IMG/VR virus record: IMGVR_UViG_3300046747_000461
DNA: 33,450 nt
From: a virus
Reading direction: 5' to 3' (one strand)
The first letter of the stretch is position 1. Every line of letters begins with the position of its first letter. Positions 1 to 33,450 of this stretch are shown in pieces. Position numbers and translations under genes: made by a program. Below the pieces are notes generated by a model. The model was not told where the DNA came from, did no database searches, and saw only the letters and a list, made by a program, of their open reading frames with translations.

Positions 1-127
1 TTAGAACATGTTTTTAAAATTGCATTGCAATTGCAATTATTTCGTTTGCAATTGCAGAAATTGCACGATTTCTATGAAAACGTAGTATGAATCCTACGAA
101 AATTGCATGAAAGTTGGAATATCGCTC
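1..127. repeat. Left copy of an exact 127-bp terminal direct repeat (identical to 33324..33450)
   Basis: ttagaacatgtttttaaaattgcattgcaattgc...gaatatcgctc read base by base at both ends of the window. This implies a circular contig or a terminal redundancy. Confidence 0.95.
17..107. promoter_or_regulatory. Cluster of TTGCA-core repeats including TTGCAATTGCA palindromes (candidate protein-binding array)
   Basis: AAATTGCA at 17-24, 58-65 and 100-107. TTGCAATTGCA at 25-35 (perfect 12-bp palindrome TTGCAATTGCAA at 25-36) and at 46-56. It lies in a ~585-bp non-coding region that spans the junction. Confidence 0.45.
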
Positions 128-425
128 GGATTTTACCCGCCCAATTTTTCTTTTTTTGTGCTACGTGAAAACTATCGTTCTATTTTAGATAATTAACTTA
201 TTTTGTAAAGTTCATTCTTACAGGCATAAAAGATAGCTGCTATCACAGGAATGGAACCTCTCAGTTTTTGTTATTTCTTGCATTTTTTCCAAGCCCTACT
301 AACCTTAATATTAAGTGGACTTGCTCTGCTTCGCGCTCTGCGTTACGAGGTTAACTTCGCCAGTTAAGGATTATCTGGCCGCGCTCAGCGACACGAGGAT
401 TACCGTCACGGGGAAATAGTGGGTT

Positions 426-1188: not shown

Positions 1189-2436
1189 ATGGCCGTTCCA
1201 GCAAATATTCTACAGCAAGTGCAGACATATCAAATGTCATCACTCGCTTTCTTACAAAACTTAAATTGTTTTGTATCTACAGCAAATACTAAATTTAAAA
1301 ACTTTGAACAACTTATCGGAAACTTAGGTGACACGGTAACATTCGATTTACCTCCAAGAATGACGACCGTTGGTTCTCTAGTTGCAGCTTTCCAACCCGC
1401 AGACCAAAGAGTTCAAGCTCTGAGCTGTCAAAATGCTGTTTCAACTTCTTATGCTTTCACCTCTCAGCAATTCATCTTCAACGTTGAAGATTATATGCAA
1501 CGATTTGGTAAAGCAGCCACACAAGAAATTGGTGCCAAGATTGAAGCCAACATTGCTCAAAATGCTGTAACTCACACATTTAGATTCTTTGGCGATGGCG
1601 TAAACCCAATCAACACCTATACACAATTAGCTAACGCTCTTGCATTGTTCCGTAACTTCGGTTCCGCAACAGGCAAAGCAAAAGGTTACTTAGGCGATAC
1701 GGTTGTACCTAACATCGTAGGAAGCGGCTTAAACCAGTTTGCTTTAGATCGCAATAACAGAATTGCTAATTCATGGGAATTAGGCGAATTCTCAAACTGC
1801 GATTGGTATCAATCAAACTTGTTGCCAATTCATGTATCAGGAAACGTTGGAAATGCAGCAACAGTATTGACGGTTACTGGATTCACGCAAAATGGTCCAG
1901 ACAACTCAATTGATACAATTTCGTTTGGTGGCGCTACAGCCAATGACGCTAATGCAATTCTATTGAACGATAAAATTCAATTTAGCGATGGTGTAGCAGG
2001 GCAACCCAATCTTCGTTACAGAACATTTATAGGCCATGAAGTTTCTGCTAACTCTGTGCAGGTAAGAGCATTAGCAAATGTTGGCGCTACCGCTGGCGGC
2101 GTTGTAACTATACCTATTTTCCCGTTCCTACAAGCTGCGCCAACAAATGCACAAAATTTAAATGTGCAGGTAGCTATAGGCATGCAGGCTAAAGTACTTC
2201 CAAGCCATCGCGCTGGGTTAATAACCGCTGGGGATCCCTTGTTCTTGGCGATGCCAAGACTACCAGATCAAATACCGTTCCCAACTGCCAATGAAAACGA
2301 TCCTGAAACGGGCGTTTCCTTACGTATGTACTACGGTACTTTGTTTGGTCAAAACCAAATGGGCATGATACATGATGCAATTTGGGGATCGACTTTGGTC
2401 GATGAGTACGCCTTGGCGTTAATTTTCCCATTGTAG
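1189..2436 (+). CDS. Major capsid protein (putative)
   Basis: 415 aa, RBS AAAGGAA, follows the scaffold gene and is followed by a stem-loop. Size and position are typical of an HK97-fold coat protein. Confidence 0.75.
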   Translation: MAVPANILQQVQTYQMSSLAFLQNLNCFVSTANTKFKNFEQLIGNLGDTVTFDLPPRMTTVGSLVAAFQPADQRVQALSCQNAVSTSYAFTSQQFIFNVEDYMQRFGKAATQEIGAKIEANIAQNAVTHTFRFFGDGVNPINTYTQLANALALFRNFGSATGKAKGYLGDTVVPNIVGSGLNQFALDRNNRIANSWELGEFSNCDWYQSNLLPIHVSGNVGNAATVLTVTGFTQNGPDNSIDTISFGGATANDANAILLNDKIQFSDGVAGQPNLRYRTFIGHEVSANSVQVRALANVGATAGGVVTIPIFPFLQAAPTNAQNLNVQVAIGMQAKVLPSHRAGLITAGDPLFLAMPRLPDQIPFPTANENDPETGVSLRMYYGTLFGQNQMGMIHDAIWGSTLVDEYALALIFPL

Positions 2437-2442
2437 TGAACT

Positions 2443-2468
2443 AGGGGGCCTTCGGGCTCCCTCTTTGC
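2443..2468 (+). terminator. Stem-loop/attenuator after the capsid gene
   Basis: AGGGGGCC-TTCG-GGCTCCCT (8-bp stem with one G-U pair, TTCG tetraloop) followed by CTTTGC. The U-tract is weak. Confidence 0.45.
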
Positions 2469-2492
2469 AACCTTAATGAAAGGATTAAATAT

Positions 2493-3335
2493 ATGACACT
2501 GCGATTACCCTTAGCCCCAATGAAAAACTTGGGTAACTTATTTGTAAATGGTGGCAATCTACTTTTCTTAGATACCACTCATGTTCTTGTAACTCCAGGC
2601 GCATTTCGTGATTCAACCGATGTCAATGACATTATTTTGAGGCCAACAATTACGCAAGCAAATGCAACACTGACTGGAAATCCAAACGAACTAGTTATAG
2701 ATGCGAATGCACCTAACACCACTATTAGCGTTAGAAACAATGGCGTAAATGGTTTAGACGTTGGTGTTCTCGCTGCAAATAGTTATTACAATGTGTTTGT
2801 TATTGGTAGCTCTACGGCAGGCGATGTTGGTGGGTTCGAATTTGTGCCAGTAGCATGTTTGTTATCTTTAAGCGCAACCAATCCCGCTTTACCTGTTGGT
2901 TATGATATGTTCAGACGTGTAGGAACAATTAGAACTGACGCTACGGCAGCTCCAAATACTTTAGTATTAGGATTTACACAAACAGGCGTTACACAATCAC
3001 GCACTATGTGGTACAACACAGCAATCGAGGTGAAAGCAGTCGGATTTGCTGCTGCCTTCACTGCACAGAATATTAGTGCTGCTGTTCCGGCTCTAGCAAC
3101 AGATGTAAATTTTGAAGTGCGATTGACGCCTAATGCCGCAGGTAATTTTGTTGCAATAAGACCCACTGGATCGGCTTCGGCTGTCGGTACTGCTCTAATG
3201 AGTGGTTCTGCTGCCGGTGTGTTGAAAATTGATGATATTCGTTGTCCTTGCAATGCTACACCTAGCATTGACTGGAAAACCGATGCAGCATCAAACGTAA
3301 CTTTAAATGTTATATCTTACGTAGATCAGTTATAA
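2493..3335 (+). CDS. Virion structural protein, function unknown
   Basis: 280 aa, RBS AAAGGA, located between the capsid and adaptor-like genes. Beta-rich, Thr/Asn/Ala/Val composition. Confidence 0.6.
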   Translation: MTLRLPLAPMKNLGNLFVNGGNLLFLDTTHVLVTPGAFRDSTDVNDIILRPTITQANATLTGNPNELVIDANAPNTTISVRNNGVNGLDVGVLAANSYYNVFVIGSSTAGDVGGFEFVPVACLLSLSATNPALPVGYDMFRRVGTIRTDATAAPNTLVLGFTQTGVTQSRTMWYNTAIEVKAVGFAAAFTAQNISAAVPALATDVNFEVRLTPNAAGNFVAIRPTGSASAVGTALMSGSAAGVLKIDDIRCPCNATPSIDWKTDAASNVTLNVISYVDQL

Positions 3336-3344
3336 GGGCAGTCG

Positions 3345-4391
3345 ATGACTTACCCCGTCACAAAGCTGATAAATGAGGCTTTCTATACCTCTGGTATAGT
3401 CTCGCGTCAGTTTCAGACAGTGGCGGGGGACCAATTTGAGGTTGGCCTTGATAAGCTAAACGAAATATTATCTGATACGGCGATTGAAGAGGATATGATT
3501 CCTTATTTCAATTCTTCGTATCAGTTTAATGCCGTTGCTGGACAAGAAAAGTACTTCATTCCGAATCTATCCGAGGCTGAGACTTTAACCTTCTTCATTC
3601 AGTCAATACGTTATCAAATGCGCAAGAATCCTAGAGACCAATATTTTGGAACAGGAAGAACGCAGAACGTATTGTCTTTACCGTTTAATTGGCATTGTGA
3701 AAGAACACTGGGGGGATCTAATCTATTTATTTATTTCTTTCCTGATATTAATTACCCAATGGAGTTGACGGGTTTATTTAGGTTACAAAGTGTAACTGCG
3801 TCTCAAGACTTATCCGTAAACACTACACAAGGTAATTTGGGTATACCGACAATTGTATATACCGCACCCGTACCACCACCTCCCAGAAACTTTGTTATTC
3901 AGCCTGGACAGCTTGTGATTAATGGCTTTGATTTACAAGGTGCATATGCAGATACCAACGCCTTGGTTGCTTTCATAAACACCGGTGTAATCAATCATGT
4001 AACAGCCGGCATCTTCGGATTAGAATTTATTTTAACTAATTCATTTGGTGAAAATATTGTTGTAGAAACAGCGGGCGTAAATCCAGGAATAGATAATATT
4101 ACTTTCTCAAACTTTAGTACCCGCAATGGACCTTTTAATTTAACTTTCTTCCCCTCAGGATTAGACCAGTATTATATCAACTACTTACAATACCGATTAG
4201 CTGAACGATTATGTACTGCCTATAACTTTGTTCCTCCGCAAGGGATGATTAAACAACTTTTACAATACACGCAAATGATATCTAAGCGCTCTAGCCCAAT
4301 GGACTTGACCATTAATAAAATTAGTACGATAACAAATAAGAGTTCGATTAATTACGGACAGGTGAATCTCGGTAAAGGGTGGACAGTTTAA
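3345..4391 (+). CDS. Tail tubular protein A / adaptor-like protein (putative)
   Basis: 348 aa. N-terminus LINEAFYTSGIVSRQFQTVAGDQFEVGLDKLNEIL resembles, from memory, the T7 gp11 N-terminal pattern (VNDILASIGE...ARRILNKINRQIQ). The syntenic position also matches. Confidence 0.5.
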   Translation: MTYPVTKLINEAFYTSGIVSRQFQTVAGDQFEVGLDKLNEILSDTAIEEDMIPYFNSSYQFNAVAGQEKYFIPNLSEAETLTFFIQSIRYQMRKNPRDQYFGTGRTQNVLSLPFNWHCERTLGGSNLFIYFFPDINYPMELTGLFRLQSVTASQDLSVNTTQGNLGIPTIVYTAPVPPPPRNFVIQPGQLVINGFDLQGAYADTNALVAFINTGVINHVTAGIFGLEFILTNSFGENIVVETAGVNPGIDNITFSNFSTRNGPFNLTFFPSGLDQYYINYLQYRLAERLCTAYNFVPPQGMIKQLLQYTQMISKRSSPMDLTINKISTITNKSSINYGQVNLGKGWTV

Positions 4392-4403
4392 TAACTTATA
4401 TGA

Positions 4404-6032
4404 GTGAACATGAGAAAGACCGCAGGAGAAGCAAAGCAAGAGAAAGTCAACGTAGTTGGGTCTAGCACCTTTGGTCGTTATAATAAAATATCCTCCGCCA
4501 CTACCGTCAATATGTTTATCACCGATAAATGGATATGCAATACCGCAGGCTATCAGCGTATCTTAGAATTTGTAGCAGGGGGAGAAGGAAGAGGGCTGTT
4601 CACAAGTATCCGAGGTAATTTCCTACTAGCAGTCGTTGGCCAAGGTGTCTATAGGATTGAAACAAATCTAACAATAACATTCATTGGTAACTTAGTAACT
4701 GCGGTCGGCGAAGTATTTATGGATGAGAATTTAAACTCTCAGATATGCTTGGTCGATGGACTGAATGCCTATATCTACAATCATTCTCTTCTGCCCAACA
4801 TAACAATTCAAGGTGGACTCGGAACACTGATACCAAATTACGTCGAATACCATAATACTTTCTTTCTATTTGGTAACGGCAATAGAACGCCTAACGGTTC
4901 AGCGTGGTATGCATTTTCTTTTGCTACACCCACCACTATTGCTCTCACAACTCAATTTGCATTACAAACAAAACCTGATTACGCAATAGCGATTATGAGG
5001 CTGCCCGGACAGGGAAATAATATTTTAGTTTTTGGTACCGCTGTTTGTGAAATATGGACGCAAGTCGGTGGAACACAAAACTACTTAAGAAACTCCACAA
5101 TCAACATAGACTATGGTTGCATATCCGTATCAACCATTGATGCTTCCGATAAGTATATTGCATGGCTTGGAGTAAATGAAAACAATGCTCCTGTTATATT
5201 GGTTTATACTGGTCAAACCTTCTCTCCAATATCTACAGATGGCATCGATTACAAATTAGCTAACGTCAAGTTTCCAGGTCAATCTACAGCCATGTTTTAT
5301 CGCCAAGACGGCCATCTTTTCTACCAATTAACCTTTTTTAATCCTGCTGATAATTTAACGCTAATTTACGACTTTACAACCGAAATGTTCTTTAATCTGA
5401 CAGATTTTGAATTAAACTTTCACCCAGCTAGACAGTATGCTTATTTTAACTTAAAGACTTATTTCTTGTCCCTTAATAATGCCTCACTCTATCAATCATC
5501 CACAGATTTTACGACCTATAATGAAAATCTACCCACTAATCCTAATCCAGACCCTAACCTTAATCGAACCATCCAGCGCATTAGGATTACAGATACAATC
5601 CGAGCCCTAGACTCTAGCGGCTTTAGAGCCAATACCTTTGTTTTTACGATAGAGCAGGGTAATGATCCCCTAGTCTCAGGTGTGTCGTTATTGAACAACG
5701 AGAATCTATTGATAACCGAGGACCTTTTTGCCCCTCCTCTAGACGTAATCTATACTGAATTTGATATCCCTATTGCAGATGAAACCTCAGGGTTGGGAAT
5801 TCCTCTTGGAGATTTACCGCCGCCTTATCAGCCTAGAGTAGATTTAAGTATCTCTAGGGACGGAGGCATTACTTGGAGCAATACTGTGGCAAGATATTTA
5901 AACCCAGTTGCAATTCGACAGAATATTATTAATTGGGAGAATATGGGAACTTGCAATAGCCTAACACTTAAACTTAGGTTTTGGGGATTAGATCGTTTTG
6001 TGGCATACGATGGCGTAGCGGAACTGTACTAA
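4404..6032 (+). CDS. Tail tubular protein B / nozzle-like protein (putative)
   Basis: 542 aa, follows the adaptor-like gene as in T7 gp11-gp12. The start is GTG at 4404 or ATG at 4410. Confidence 0.5.
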   Translation: MNMRKTAGEAKQEKVNVVGSSTFGRYNKISSATTVNMFITDKWICNTAGYQRILEFVAGGEGRGLFTSIRGNFLLAVVGQGVYRIETNLTITFIGNLVTAVGEVFMDENLNSQICLVDGLNAYIYNHSLLPNITIQGGLGTLIPNYVEYHNTFFLFGNGNRTPNGSAWYAFSFATPTTIALTTQFALQTKPDYAIAIMRLPGQGNNILVFGTAVCEIWTQVGGTQNYLRNSTINIDYGCISVSTIDASDKYIAWLGVNENNAPVILVYTGQTFSPISTDGIDYKLANVKFPGQSTAMFYRQDGHLFYQLTFFNPADNLTLIYDFTTEMFFNLTDFELNFHPARQYAYFNLKTYFLSLNNASLYQSSTDFTTYNENLPTNPNPDPNLNRTIQRIRITDTIRALDSSGFRANTFVFTIEQGNDPLVSGVSLLNNENLLITEDLFAPPLDVIYTEFDIPIADETSGLGIPLGDLPPPYQPRVDLSISRDGGITWSNTVARYLNPVAIRQNIINWENMGTCNSLTLKLRFWGLDRFVAYDGVAELY

Positions 6033-9633: not shown

Positions 9634-9764
9634 TCAAGGTCATCTAATATAATATCTTCATACGATGCCCTATCATCAATACTATTATCCCAAATATCTT
9701 GTATTATACAACCTATAATCCACCCGATGAATGCGCAAACTATAACTATTATAATATCAAACAT
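9630..9764 (-). CDS. 44-aa membrane mini-protein (TM helix plus acidic tail)
   Basis: Below the ORF-track size cutoff. MFDIIIVIVCAFIGWIIGCIIQDIWDNSIDDRASYEDIILDDLD. RBS GGAGGAG. It shares an identical 19-nt 5' region with the next gene upstream. Confidence 0.55.
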   Translation of the reverse strand: MFDIIIVIVCAFIGWIIGCIIQDIWDNSIDDRASYEDIILDDLD

Positions 9765-26223: not shown

Positions 26224-26538
26224 ATGGAAAGTACTAATGAACAACCAATATTGTCAAAAAAACAAAAGGCTGAAATACTTACAGTATTAAGTTCACAATT
26301 ATTAGAAATGTTACCGGGAGACAATGTATATTCAGAATCTTGCAAAGAGGTTCTTATAGGATTTTGTGTTGTCTTCCTTGGTTCTTTCATTATTACGCAA
26401 GTTGAAAATGAACAAAAATCTATGGGTGCTGCCATAAACGAAATAGAGCATTTTAGTGTAAATCTTAAGCATAGATTCATTAATATGTTGTATAGATCAC
26501 TAGAAAAGGTTACAGAGCCGGAGGATTCAAATGAATAA
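26224..26538 (+). CDS. Hypothetical early protein with one hydrophobic helix
   Basis: 104 aa, RBS GAGGTG, LIGFCVVFLGSFIITQV. Its last codons plus 3' flank form copy 1 of a 25-bp direct repeat. Confidence 0.55.
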   Translation: MESTNEQPILSKKQKAEILTVLSSQLLEMLPGDNVYSESCKEVLIGFCVVFLGSFIITQVENEQKSMGAAINEIEHFSVNLKHRFINMLYRSLEKVTEPEDSNE

Positions 26539-26551
26539 AACTTCTGAGTAC
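26527..26551. repeat. 25-bp perfect direct repeat, copy 1
   Basis: tcaaatgaataaaacttctgagtac, identical to 26966..26990. Confidence 0.9.
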
Positions 26552-26557
26552 GTTTAA

Positions 26558-26977
26558 ATGAACTTAACACCACAACACGTTGCCATGGCTAAAGCAAAAA
26601 ATAAAATATATCGCCTGTATGACGGAGATTGTCTTCATCTGGAAATCACACCAGCTTCTGGGAAATTATGGAGATATAAATATAAATTTAATGGTAAGGA
26701 CCAAAAATTATCTCTCGGTTGTTATCCAGAAATAGGATTATATGAAGCCAGAGAGCGTCGAGACCGTTTGAAGAAATTAGTTAAGAGTGGTATAAATCCA
26801 AGCATCGAGAGAAAAAAAGATAAACTAAATATAAAAAAATCAACCGAAAAGGATACGTTACTTATAACCATTTTAAAAGAATTAAAAAAAATATATCCAA
26901 TAGTTCAAGATGTTGATAAAAGGTTATTTAACATAGAAAAAATAATTTTAGATATAAAGATGGGATCAAATGAATAA
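26558..26977 (+). pseudogene. Truncated P4-type tyrosine integrase: arm-type DNA-binding domain only
   Basis: 139-aa ORF. The N-terminal ~85 aa (KIYRLYDGDCLHLEITPASGKLWRYKYKFNGKDQKLSLGCYPEIGLYEARERRDRLKKLVKSGINP) matches the DUF4102/arm-binding domain pattern of P4-like integrases. No catalytic domain, an AT-rich low-complexity tail and no SD. Confidence 0.7.
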
Positions 26978-26990
26978 AACTTCTGAGTAC
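26966..26990. repeat. 25-bp perfect direct repeat, copy 2
   Basis: Identical to 26527..26551. Both copies supply the terminal SNE-stop codons of the ORF ending in them. Confidence 0.9.
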
Positions 26991-27025
26991 ATTCATTATC
27001 AGAAACGTTATATTTAAGGAAATTT

Positions 27026-31969: not shown

Positions 31970-32184
31970 GCTTTGATGAAACAAAAATTAAAATGAATAT
32001 ATTCTCAATAGGATTAGGAAATGAGAAGTTTTATTGCAATTTAAGAAGTGGTGAATTCCAAAAGGAATTTGAATTTAAAAATGATTCTTGTTTTATTGAT
32101 TTTCTTTTAACAGTCGAAAGAAAAATCCGAGAGCTCAAGGAGGAGCACGAAAATGGCGAAACTAACGACGAAACAACGCAATAA
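31966..32184 (+). CDS. Hypothetical protein
   Basis: 72 aa, ATGA-coupled to the portal gene. Confidence 0.5.
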   Translation: MSFDETKIKMNIFSIGLGNEKFYCNLRSGEFQKEFEFKNDSCFIDFLLTVERKIRELKEEHENGETNDETTQ

Positions 32185-32407
32185 ATTGCCTAAGTCTGAA
32201 TTTGGAATGCCTGGTGAAAGAAAGTACCCCATAAATAATCCGGCTCATGCAAAAAACGCGAAAAGTAGAGCCTCCCAGATGGAGAAGGCAGGAAAGCTAT
32301 CTGAAAGTGCTAAGGCTAAGATAGATGCTAAGGCCAATAAGATGCTTCATGCTAAGAAAAAGAAAGTAGCTAAGCCTAAGTCTAAGGGTAAGACTGTTAC
32401 TGGTTAG
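32153..32407 (+). CDS. Small Lys-rich head-module protein (LP.SEF...RKYPI...H..NA motif)
   Basis: 84 aa, RBS AGGAGG. This motif occurs in a widespread small phage protein family found near head genes (from memory). Confidence 0.55.
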   Translation: MAKLTTKQRNKLPKSEFGMPGERKYPINNPAHAKNAKSRASQMEKAGKLSESAKAKIDAKANKMLHAKKKKVAKPKSKGKTVTG

Positions 32408-32408
32408 A

Positions 32409-32484
32409 TGGCTCCCCGAGACGGGCTCGAACCGCCGACCCAGTGATTAACAGTCACTTATTCTTCCAACTGAACTATCGGGGA
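32409..32484 (-). tRNA. tRNA-Asn (anticodon GUU) with encoded CCA
   Basis: Reverse complement TCCCCGA-TA-GTTC-AGTTGGAA-GAAT-A-AGTGA-CTGTTAA-TCACT-GGGTC-GGCGG-TTCGAGC-CCGTC-TCGGGGA-G-CCA. 76 nt with a 7-bp acceptor stem, anticodon loop CT-GTT-AA and a TTCGAGC T-loop. Confidence 0.92.
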
Positions 32485-32493
32485 TCTATTTTT

Positions 32494-32826
32494 TCAATAA
32501 CCTTCTGTTTGTTTATTTTTTAAGCTATCTACATTCGCTTCTAAAGTCTGGATTAACTTATCATATCTTCTAGCATCAATATAATGTTGAATCGTTGGAA
32601 TAATTGTAGTGGTAAAAATAGCTCCTCCTATAATAATCACAACCATAAATCTTGCATTAATTTGAGCCATCATTTTATCTTGCATTAACTGCATTTCTGG
32701 CCTTAATACTATTTCTTTATCTAATTCTGCAGCCAGTGCCAGTGATTCAGCTTGCAGGGTTGCCTGTTGCTCTGTAAAACCCGCTGCTAGATATTTTTTG
32801 TATTCAATTAATGTATCAATTCTCAT
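32494..32826 (-). CDS. Small membrane protein, DUF1640-like family paralog F
   Basis: 110 aa. IDTLIEYKKYLAAGFTEQQA. TM helix FMVVIIIGGAIFTTTIIP followed by a coiled-coil tail. RBS AGGAG. Its stop is 9 nt upstream of the tRNA 5' end on the same strand. Confidence 0.75.
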   Translation of the reverse strand: MRIDTLIEYKKYLAAGFTEQQATLQAESLALAAELDKEIVLRPEMQLMQDKMMAQINARFMVVIIIGGAIFTTTIIPTIQHYIDARRYDKLIQTLEANVDSLKNKQTEGY

Positions 32827-32853
32827 GTATTTACTCCTATCTATCCTGAGAAC

Positions 32854-32912
32854 ATTTTACCACTTTTCTTAAATTGGTAACAAATTGGTAGATGTGTTGA
32901 TATACAACCAAT
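32854..32912 (-). promoter_or_regulatory. Promoter of paralog F with repeated AAATTGGTA operator-like sites
   Basis: Minus strand: TTGTTA (32883..32878), 18-nt spacer, TAAAAT (32859..32854). + strand: AAATTGGTA at 32871..32879 and 32882..32890 (11-bp phasing), with an inverted ACCAAT at 32907..32912. Confidence 0.45.
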
Positions 32913-32951: not shown

Positions 32952-33131
32952 TTATTTTAAATTAGTTACCCATTCCTCAATCTCTTTCCTTTTGTACATC
33001 GGACGTTTCCCATTTAATATTGCTGCCTTAGGAAAATCAGGCAACTTATTTATTTCATAGAATTTAGTAGGTCCAACACCTAAAATTTCCTGTACTTGTT
33101 TTGGATAAATTAATAGCGATTCATCACTCAT
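32952..33131 (-). CDS. AlpA/excisionase-like HTH protein
   Basis: 59 aa from ATG 33131, preceded by GGGAG. LIYPKQVQEILGVGPTKFYEINKLPDFPKAAILNGKRPMYKRKEIEEWV matches the AlpA/Xis MerR-like HTH pattern. Confidence 0.7.
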   Translation of the reverse strand: MSDESLLIYPKQVQEILGVGPTKFYEINKLPDFPKAAILNGKRPMYKRKEIEEWVTNLK

Positions 33132-33323
33132 GTTCACTCCCGAGGAGTTAGCTCGATATAACATCCATATACCGAGCCAATCTCTTTTAACATTGCTTCT
33201 CTCTAATTAGAACAGTTCTCAACCATTCACGATGTATTTTAAACAAAATTATAAAGAAGTAAACAATAGAAATAAGATGGAATACACAACTTGAACTATT
33301 GCCCCTATCCATCGCCTGTGCCT

Positions 33324-33450
33324 TTAGAACATGTTTTTAAAATTGCATTGCAATTGCAATTATTTCGTTTGCAATTGCAGAAATTGCACGATTTCTATGA
33401 AAACGTAGTATGAATCCTACGAAAATTGCATGAAAGTTGGAATATCGCTC
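33324..33450. repeat. Right copy of the exact 127-bp terminal direct repeat
   Basis: Identical to 1..127. The unique genome length is therefore 33,323 bp. Confidence 0.95.

Follow-up and report, generated by a model that had tools for sequence, protein, structure and literature searches.

A phage tRNA-Asn gene that follows a moron-like gene within a variable cargo slot: the genome of an uncultured P22-like phage

The window (the entire 33,450-nt stretch of viral DNA analyzed here) ends in an exact 127-nt repeat of its own first 127 nucleotides (33324..33450, identical to 1-127) and measures 33,323 bp once the contig ends are joined. It is a complete phage genome, captured either as a circular assembly or with terminal redundancy. 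An Sf6-type small terminase, a large terminase, and portal, scaffold, and major capsid proteins are encoded, together with RusA and PD-(D/E)XK nuclease genes. ARAGORN detected a single tRNA in the window, a 76-nt tRNA-Asn (anticodon GTT, i.e. GUU in the RNA) on the minus strand at 32409..32484, with an encoded CCA at 32411-32409. Upstream of it on the same strand lie ORF F (32494..32826, minus; 110 aa) and an AlpA/excisionase-type helix-turn-helix (HTH) gene (32952..33164, minus). On its other side, transcribed toward it, is a conserved gene of the late operon encoding a DUF6582 protein (32153..32407, plus; PF20223, phrog_16160), with its stop codon ending 1 nt short of the tRNA 3' end. Circular closure and the phage flanks place the tRNA on the phage genome rather than on a chromosomal flank.

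The first-pass annotation had described a canonical 76-nt tRNA-Asn(GUU) with CCA, starting 9 nt past the F stop codon, and both the coordinates and the Rfam match (RF00005) agree with this description. ARAGORN, which it had suggested as a check, calls a tRNA-Asn, and a pseudogene-like score was not observed: Infernal returned 60.6 bits, where the gathering score is 29, with the full model (positions 1-71) covered. For comparison, scores were 66.7-72 bits for cellular tRNA-Asn genes, and 57.5 and 63.4 bits for two further tRNAs of a host locus. Judged by score, the gene is therefore not a pseudogene. The invariant positions are readable (U8, A14, G18, G19, A21, U33, the T-loop, and the G15-C48 pair). 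The 7-nt anticodon loop (CUGUUAA), the U1-A72 pair, and the discriminator G73 are the same as in cellular tRNA-Asn, and the anticodon and G73 are identity elements for asparaginyl-tRNA synthetase (AsnRS). The tRNA is predicted to be functional and to be charged and used in translation.

The tRNA belongs to a cassette that starts at 32408, directly after the DUF6582 stop codon, and runs across the circular junction to ~375; similarity to relatives returns at 376. At this right border, nucleotide similarity of ~70% identity resumes ~50 nt ahead of the scaffold start (376-425), corresponding to a conserved leader. The cassette holds the tRNA, F, the AlpA-like gene, and palindrome-rich non-coding DNA, has a GC content of 35% compared with about 41% elsewhere in the window, and interrupts the late operon between the DUF6582 and scaffold genes in the opposite transcription direction. 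A portal-based search yielded 80 related contigs of viruses, plus 17 loci in assemblies of prokaryotes. Among the 58 loci spanning both the portal and scaffold genes, the gap between them ranged from 222 to 4964 nt, with the DUF6582 gene usually next after the portal. In the nearest relative (L001), the terminase, portal, and a 72-aa ORF match those of the window at 99.5% identity. The similarity of L001 to the window stops exactly at the DUF6582 stop codon, after which it carries a different minus-strand ORF and no tRNA. Between the 72-aa ORF and the DUF6582 gene, L001 has an extra gene encoding a 161-aa Endonuclease VII-type protein (L001:3804-4289, plus; PF02945), which looks like a homing-endonuclease insertion.

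tRNAs do occur in the same slot of six relatives, all of them more distant than L001. On the plus strand these are tRNA-His (L060), tRNA-Met together with tRNA-Pro (L084), and tRNA-Gln (L090), and on the minus strand tRNA-Lys (L081) and tRNA-Tyr (L065 and L074). The first-pass annotation considered an mRNA-tRNA co-transcript inside a head-gene cluster unusual; given six other isotypes in the slot of these six relatives, the view that a tRNA at this place is unusual for the phage group is not supported. The layout in L081 resembles that of the window, with a minus-strand 192-aa ORF followed after 66 nt by the tRNA-Lys; in L065 and L074, the minus-strand tRNA-Tyr has no same-strand ORF upstream. 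The slot is a cargo-exchange site in which the presence of a tRNA is sporadic yet recurrent, and the feature studied here is an ordinary tRNA gene of a phage, placed after a moron-like gene within this variable slot. Two further arrangements were seen among related contigs. A phage-like contig (L087:5953-6038, plus) carries an 86-nt tRNA with a four-base anticodon (taga), to which ARAGORN assigned no type. In L026 (portal 57% identical), a minus-strand stretch upstream of the terminase (2406-4150) contains an AlpA-like HTH gene (3336-3668) between a tRNA-Met and a tRNA-Tyr, all on the same strand, making it a second AlpA-type gene near phage tRNAs.

ORF F ends in a TGA stop codon at 32496-32494 and has a Shine-Dalgarno sequence (AGGAG, 32834..32838, minus) 7 nt upstream of its ATG. 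It had been described as the sixth member of a family, and paralog comparison confirms six paralogs in the window, with F 39% identical to paralog E. The family appears to be a miniature DUF1640/CCDC90-like one. F comprises an N-terminal head (DTLxxYxxxLxxGfTEqQA), a short coiled coil, one transmembrane segment, and an amphipathic tail. F itself had no match in Pfam or PHROG, and its paralogs in the window match PF07798 below threshold. A family profile retrieved 819 representative proteins at E-values up to 0.001, and 32 of 70 profile-linked family members matched PF07798 (best E-value 3.3e-15). Against PDB sequences, a small family profile (A4) had no match; only the wider profile (A6) reached 6H9L (E-value 0.001) and 6H9M (E-value 0.034) as top matches. 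The family shares the head motif, coiled coil, and membrane segment with DUF1640/CCDC90-like proteins (PF07798; 6H9L, 6H9M), but F is much shorter (110 aa compared with a 175-position model) and lacks a direct Pfam match. F is recorded as encoded by 37 contigs. A word-based protein search with F returned F alone, protein-based scans for F in viral contigs and in metagenome contigs found none, and no F-like gene was found where we looked for one, beside cellular tRNA-Asn genes. F-family genes without a tRNA occupy the same slot position, divergent from the scaffold gene, in six loci (L002, L003, L011, L016, L019, and L040). Within the wider family, the head motif (profile positions 6-29) is matched 15 times in one 1157-aa protein (P0012) and 10 times in another of 1572 aa (P0110), and both look like the DTLxxY...EQA head repeated in tandem.

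Upstream of F, we identified a sigma-70-type promoter candidate, P_F (32854..32883, minus), with a -35 element TTGTTA, an 18-nt spacer, and a TG-extended -10 element TAAAAT, supported by both consensus and lenient scans. It is overlapped by operator-like repeats (32858..32890) found by pattern search. The two exact copies of AAATTGGTA (32871-32879 and 32882-32890, 11 nt apart) are the only ones in the window, and an inverted copy with one mismatch (32858-32866) lies inside the P_F spacer. The hexamer match alone is at chance level, with 5 sites of this type found and 5.3 expected in the consensus scan, and it is the position of P_F and its overlap with the AAATTGGTA repeats that make it a credible predicted promoter. 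In these respects, the scans bear out the first-pass annotation, which had proposed the same promoter with two repeats and an inverted half-site. Of the promoter-like sites upstream of the tRNA, P_F is also the strongest. Within F, on the tRNA strand, a lenient scan gave two weak matches (TCAACA-19-TATGAT, 32590..32560; TTTAGA-19-AAAAAT, 32545..32515), and a stricter consensus scan found no promoter inside F. The F stop codon is followed by a 9-nt A-rich spacer, AAAAATAGA (32485..32493, minus), which leads up to tRNA position 1 and is the predicted RNase P 5' leader. It is too short for a promoter or a terminator, as the first-pass annotation had said of the promoter.

Downstream, a hairpin followed by a T-rich run (32289..32270, minus) lies ~120 nt past the tRNA 3' end, antisense within the DUF6582 gene. 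It is a possible end of the F-tRNA transcript, and it may also be a chance match, since it lies in conserved coding sequence. Folding of the F-tRNA-trailer RNA gave no signal (z = 0.67). The AlpA-like gene directly upstream of P_F matches PF05930 marginally (21.3 bits at a cut-off of 21), with PF12728, phrog_668, and phrog_66 in agreement; its true start is likely the ATG at 33131, behind GGGAG, and a promoter-like site precedes it (33263..33236, minus). Its product could regulate P_F, or the gene could feed read-through into the F-tRNA transcript. Upstream of the AlpA-like gene, in non-coding DNA rich in TTGCAATTGCA, the minus strand at 81-209 carries a promoter-like site (TTTACA-16-TAAAAT, 209..182, 10/12) and then a terminator-like hairpin (98..81), and could encode a short RNA or a leader.

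The closest tRNA-Asn in the phage collection is at most 80.6% identical to that of the window. The best cellular matches are 72/76 (95%) identical and come from five gammaproteobacterial genomes besides the gammaproteobacterial MAG G002; the tally of these matches includes three genomes flagged as unpublished (G156, G310, and G322), on which no claim rests. All five of these cellular tRNAs show the same four differences from the phage one, all within the D arm. From cellular to phage, C11 is replaced by U together with a compensatory G24 to A, C25 by U (giving a G10-U25 wobble), and U20 by A in the D-loop. Elsewhere the tRNA is the cellular one, from the acceptor stem through the anticodon arm and variable loop to the T arm, with the 57 positions outside the D arm unchanged, and the phage D arm was found in none of 13 aligned cellular tRNA-Asn genes. 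The maintained D-arm pairing points to selection for function. By sequence comparison, the tRNA descends from a cellular gammaproteobacterial gene, probably acquired from a host lineage, that later changed in the D arm alone, with its structure preserved. Exact-pattern scans for the tRNA in viral contigs and metagenome contigs found none.

A Legionella-like or related gammaproteobacterium is the probable host. Related portals occur in an isolate of Legionella maceachernii (G001) and a Legionella MAG (G003), whose tRNA-Asn genes share 75% and 82% identity with the phage tRNA. In G002, a 326-kb scaffold carries a related portal (38% identity), and the genome has a tRNA-Asn 93% identical to the phage one and a capsid protein 50% identical to that of the window, the only such match in 401 sampled Gammaproteobacteria. 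Naming a host from the tRNA alone fails, as 72/76 identity is common to several unrelated sampled Gammaproteobacteria. The group consists of uncultured P22-like phages with a link to Legionella-like Gammaproteobacteria, bacteria with few known phages. Within it, the divergence confined to the D arm and the changing slot tRNAs can help in studies of how tRNAs are gained, kept, and lost by phages. These are the only two points that we regard as mildly notable, and neither amounts to a new principle.

Asparagine demand was compared across the genome. The first-pass annotation had judged the structural proteins to be Asn-rich by eye, and the counts agree: Asn codons make up 6.94% of late genes compared with 5.21% of early genes (chi-square p = 0.0024), and Asn content reaches 8.9% in the major capsid protein, 9.4% in a 542-aa virion protein, and 8.5% in the fibre proteins, placing capsid and tail proteins at 8-9%. 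Late-gene Asn enrichment was 1.35x, second after Gly, relative to a proxy host gene set of 13,378 codons drawn from loci of genomes with the nearest tRNA-Asn, which may not be those of the true host. One tRNA species reads Asn. A single full-length match to the phage tRNA was found in G002, and the host probably has a single tRNA-Asn gene. The modest enrichment fits the idea of compensation, short of proof.

Taken together, we lean toward reading the locus as a functional phage-borne tRNA-Asn that is co-transcribed with F, released by RNase P, and adds Asn-decoding capacity; its co-transcription, processing, timing, and benefit are inferred. As neither a promoter nor a terminator would fit into the 9-nt gap, the simplest reading is that the tRNA matures from the F transcript. 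Transcription would start at the operator-controlled P_F, where the AlpA-like protein encoded just upstream is a candidate repeat binder, with possible read-through from the AlpA-like gene. The polymerase would pass F and then, 9 nt on, the tRNA, producing one RNA. A cut by RNase P at tRNA position 1 would part the F mRNA from the tRNA, the 3' trailer would be trimmed to the encoded CCA, and the host asparaginyl-tRNA synthetase would charge the product. The extra tRNA may then raise Asn-decoding capacity for the Asn-rich virion proteins.

A bacterial counterpart exists in the secG-leuU unit of Escherichia coli, in which an RNase P cut alone separates mRNA from tRNA across a 14-nt spacer (PMC2241853). 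As in the window, a gene for a 110-aa membrane protein is followed by a same-strand tRNA, with a spacer of 14 nt there and 9 nt here. The secG-leuU promoter is of the sigma-70 type and lies upstream of the ORF only; in the window, P_F is the best site found, and weak matches lie in F. Unlike the phage unit, secG-leuU is chromosomal and essential and has a strong Rho-independent terminator directly after the tRNA. The window's unit is phage cargo with just a doubtful hairpin 120 nt downstream, and its processing is predicted. Phage tRNAs of the compensation type offer a second comparison, as they too involve a single tRNA in a small genome and an amino acid over-represented in late proteins. 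Unlike those, the tRNA of the window opposes the late operon, shares an operator-bearing promoter with a moron-like gene, and resembles cellular tRNA-Asn (95%) much more than it does any of the tRNA-Asn genes from the phage collection (at most 80.6%). The F-tRNA unit is head-on to the late operon, and no plus-strand terminator that would protect it was found between the DUF6582 and scaffold genes. Late transcription from the opposite direction should interfere, which fits poorly with a purely late role and makes expression early or in a carrier state more likely than late expression. The absence of the tRNA in L001 further indicates that it is dispensable. The locus offers a clean case of a phage tRNA that is near-identical to cellular tRNA-Asn and follows immediately after a moron-like gene, within a cargo slot of defined position.

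Alternative explanations were weighed against this co-transcript reading. It is unlikely, in our assessment, that the tRNA is transcribed independently from a weak promoter in the 3' part of F, with its closeness to F reflecting compact packing. In its favor, the two lenient-scan matches within F lie on the tRNA strand, and the tRNA-Tyr genes of L065 and L074 indicate that slot tRNAs can stand alone without an upstream same-strand ORF. However, the internal matches have poor 19-nt spacers or poor hexamers of a kind expected in AT-rich DNA, they disappear in the stricter scan, and nothing would halt P_F transcripts ahead of the tRNA. It is very unlikely that the tRNA acts in counter-defence, as a spare tRNA-Asn sustaining translation when a tRNase of the host or of a competitor depletes the cellular one. 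Nucleases of the colicin E5 type act on tRNAs with GUN anticodons, the slot tRNAs of relatives include Tyr and His, and the phage D arm is altered in a way unseen in the cellular genes inspected. Phage tRNAs have indeed been proposed to serve in counter-defence, with changes predicted in the anticodon loop (PMC10264068). The anticodon stem-loop of the window's tRNA is, however, the cellular one, precisely where escape mutations are predicted, and the slot tRNAs of relatives also include Lys, Gln, Met, and Pro. We give the lowest probability to a neutral passenger, recently acquired with the cargo cassette and bringing no selected benefit. Consistent with such a passenger, the tRNA is missing from the 99.5%-identical L001, the slot turns over fast, and the scans of viral and metagenome contigs did not recover the tRNA again; against it, the D-arm changes keep pairing, all tertiary invariants are intact, and tRNAs recur in the slot across the phage group.

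A relation to integration is highly improbable as well. The tRNA would here be either a captured host tRNA-Asn junction or a P4-type recombination site served in trans by the integrase of a resident island, assisted by the AlpA-like and arm-binding proteins. The presumed host lineage does have an integration hot spot at tRNA-Asn (G002 and G015). In G002, two repeats of the 3' half (45-47 nt; tRNA positions 30-76 and 32-76) lie 4.4 kb and 13.3 kb downstream of a full tRNA-Asn and match the tRNA of the window at 100% identity. In G015, a partial tRNA repeat lies beside a 404-aa open frame whose N-terminus is 32% identical to the arm-binding domain encoded in the window. The window itself has an AlpA-type gene 470 nt from the tRNA and an Arm-DNA-bind_3 ORF at 26558. 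Yet the 3'-half identity carries little weight, because all of the tRNA outside the D arm matches many Gammaproteobacteria. No catalytic integrase was found in Pfam and PHROG scans of the small ORFs of the cassette and early region, where the sole integrase-related ORF is 139 aa long and contains Arm-DNA-bind_3 only. The genome has no second copy of either tRNA 3' segment at up to 3 mismatches. An attP normally holds just the 3' part of a tRNA, but the window carries the whole tRNA, including its 5' half. P4-type elements insert at the 3' side of tRNAs, but here the 5' side is where F and the AlpA-like gene are located, and a conserved phage late gene lies 1 nt off the 3' side. No host junction was found either, and both flanks are phage DNA. 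The first-pass annotation had raised the option of a captured, attB-bearing host tRNA. One part of that idea stands, in that the tRNA is of a cellular gammaproteobacterial type (95%); the remainder lost ground, with no catalytic integrase among the scanned ORFs, no partial repeat, and no host junction found.

Compared with the P4-type att sites of G002, where islands are bounded by the tRNA-Asn 3' half from anticodon loop to CCA, the phage is similar in having AlpA-type and arm-binding genes, but differs in its whole tRNA, the lack of a detected integrase or second att copy, and the placement of its accessory genes on the 5' side. In the tRNA-dependent lysogeny of mycobacteriophages, a phage integrase acts with an attP whose short core disrupts a host tRNA sharing its isotype with the one supplied by the phage (Guerrero-Bustamante and Hatfull 2024, PMC10865867). 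The window is alike in its complete phage tRNA and in an isotype that is an integration target in the host lineage, but that system uses a phage tyrosine integrase, and the window has neither a catalytic integrase among the scanned ORFs nor a recognizable attP. As a phage integrase is required, tRNA-dependent lysogeny does not apply here. We consider it quite unlikely, more generally, that the tRNA is more than a translation spare, be it as a landing or recombination site through which an integrase acting in trans serves an integrase-less phage or host islands, or as a tRNase-resistant substitute.

Several smaller observations concern integration-related genes. ORFs of ~395 aa beside cellular tRNA-Asn genes (L116-L118) were considered on account of their integrase-like size and rejected, as they show no arm-binding similarity and contain an aminotransferase-like motif. 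At the tRNA-Asn locus of G002 (L104; G002:C14:177000-196900), the full tRNA lies at 5255-5330 and the 3'-half copies near 9685 and 18559, bounding islets of 4.4 kb and 8.9 kb without an integrase. By eye, the first islet encodes an S24/LexA-like repressor and membrane proteins, and the second PadR, SDR, methyltransferase, beta-lactamase-like, and EamA-like genes. In the window, the 139-aa arm-binding ORF (within 26527-26993) matches phrog_3423 over profile positions 6-102 of 157 and is flanked by 28-nt direct repeats (26527-26554 and 26966-26993), and stand-alone arm-binding proteins of this kind may represent a phage family rather than debris.
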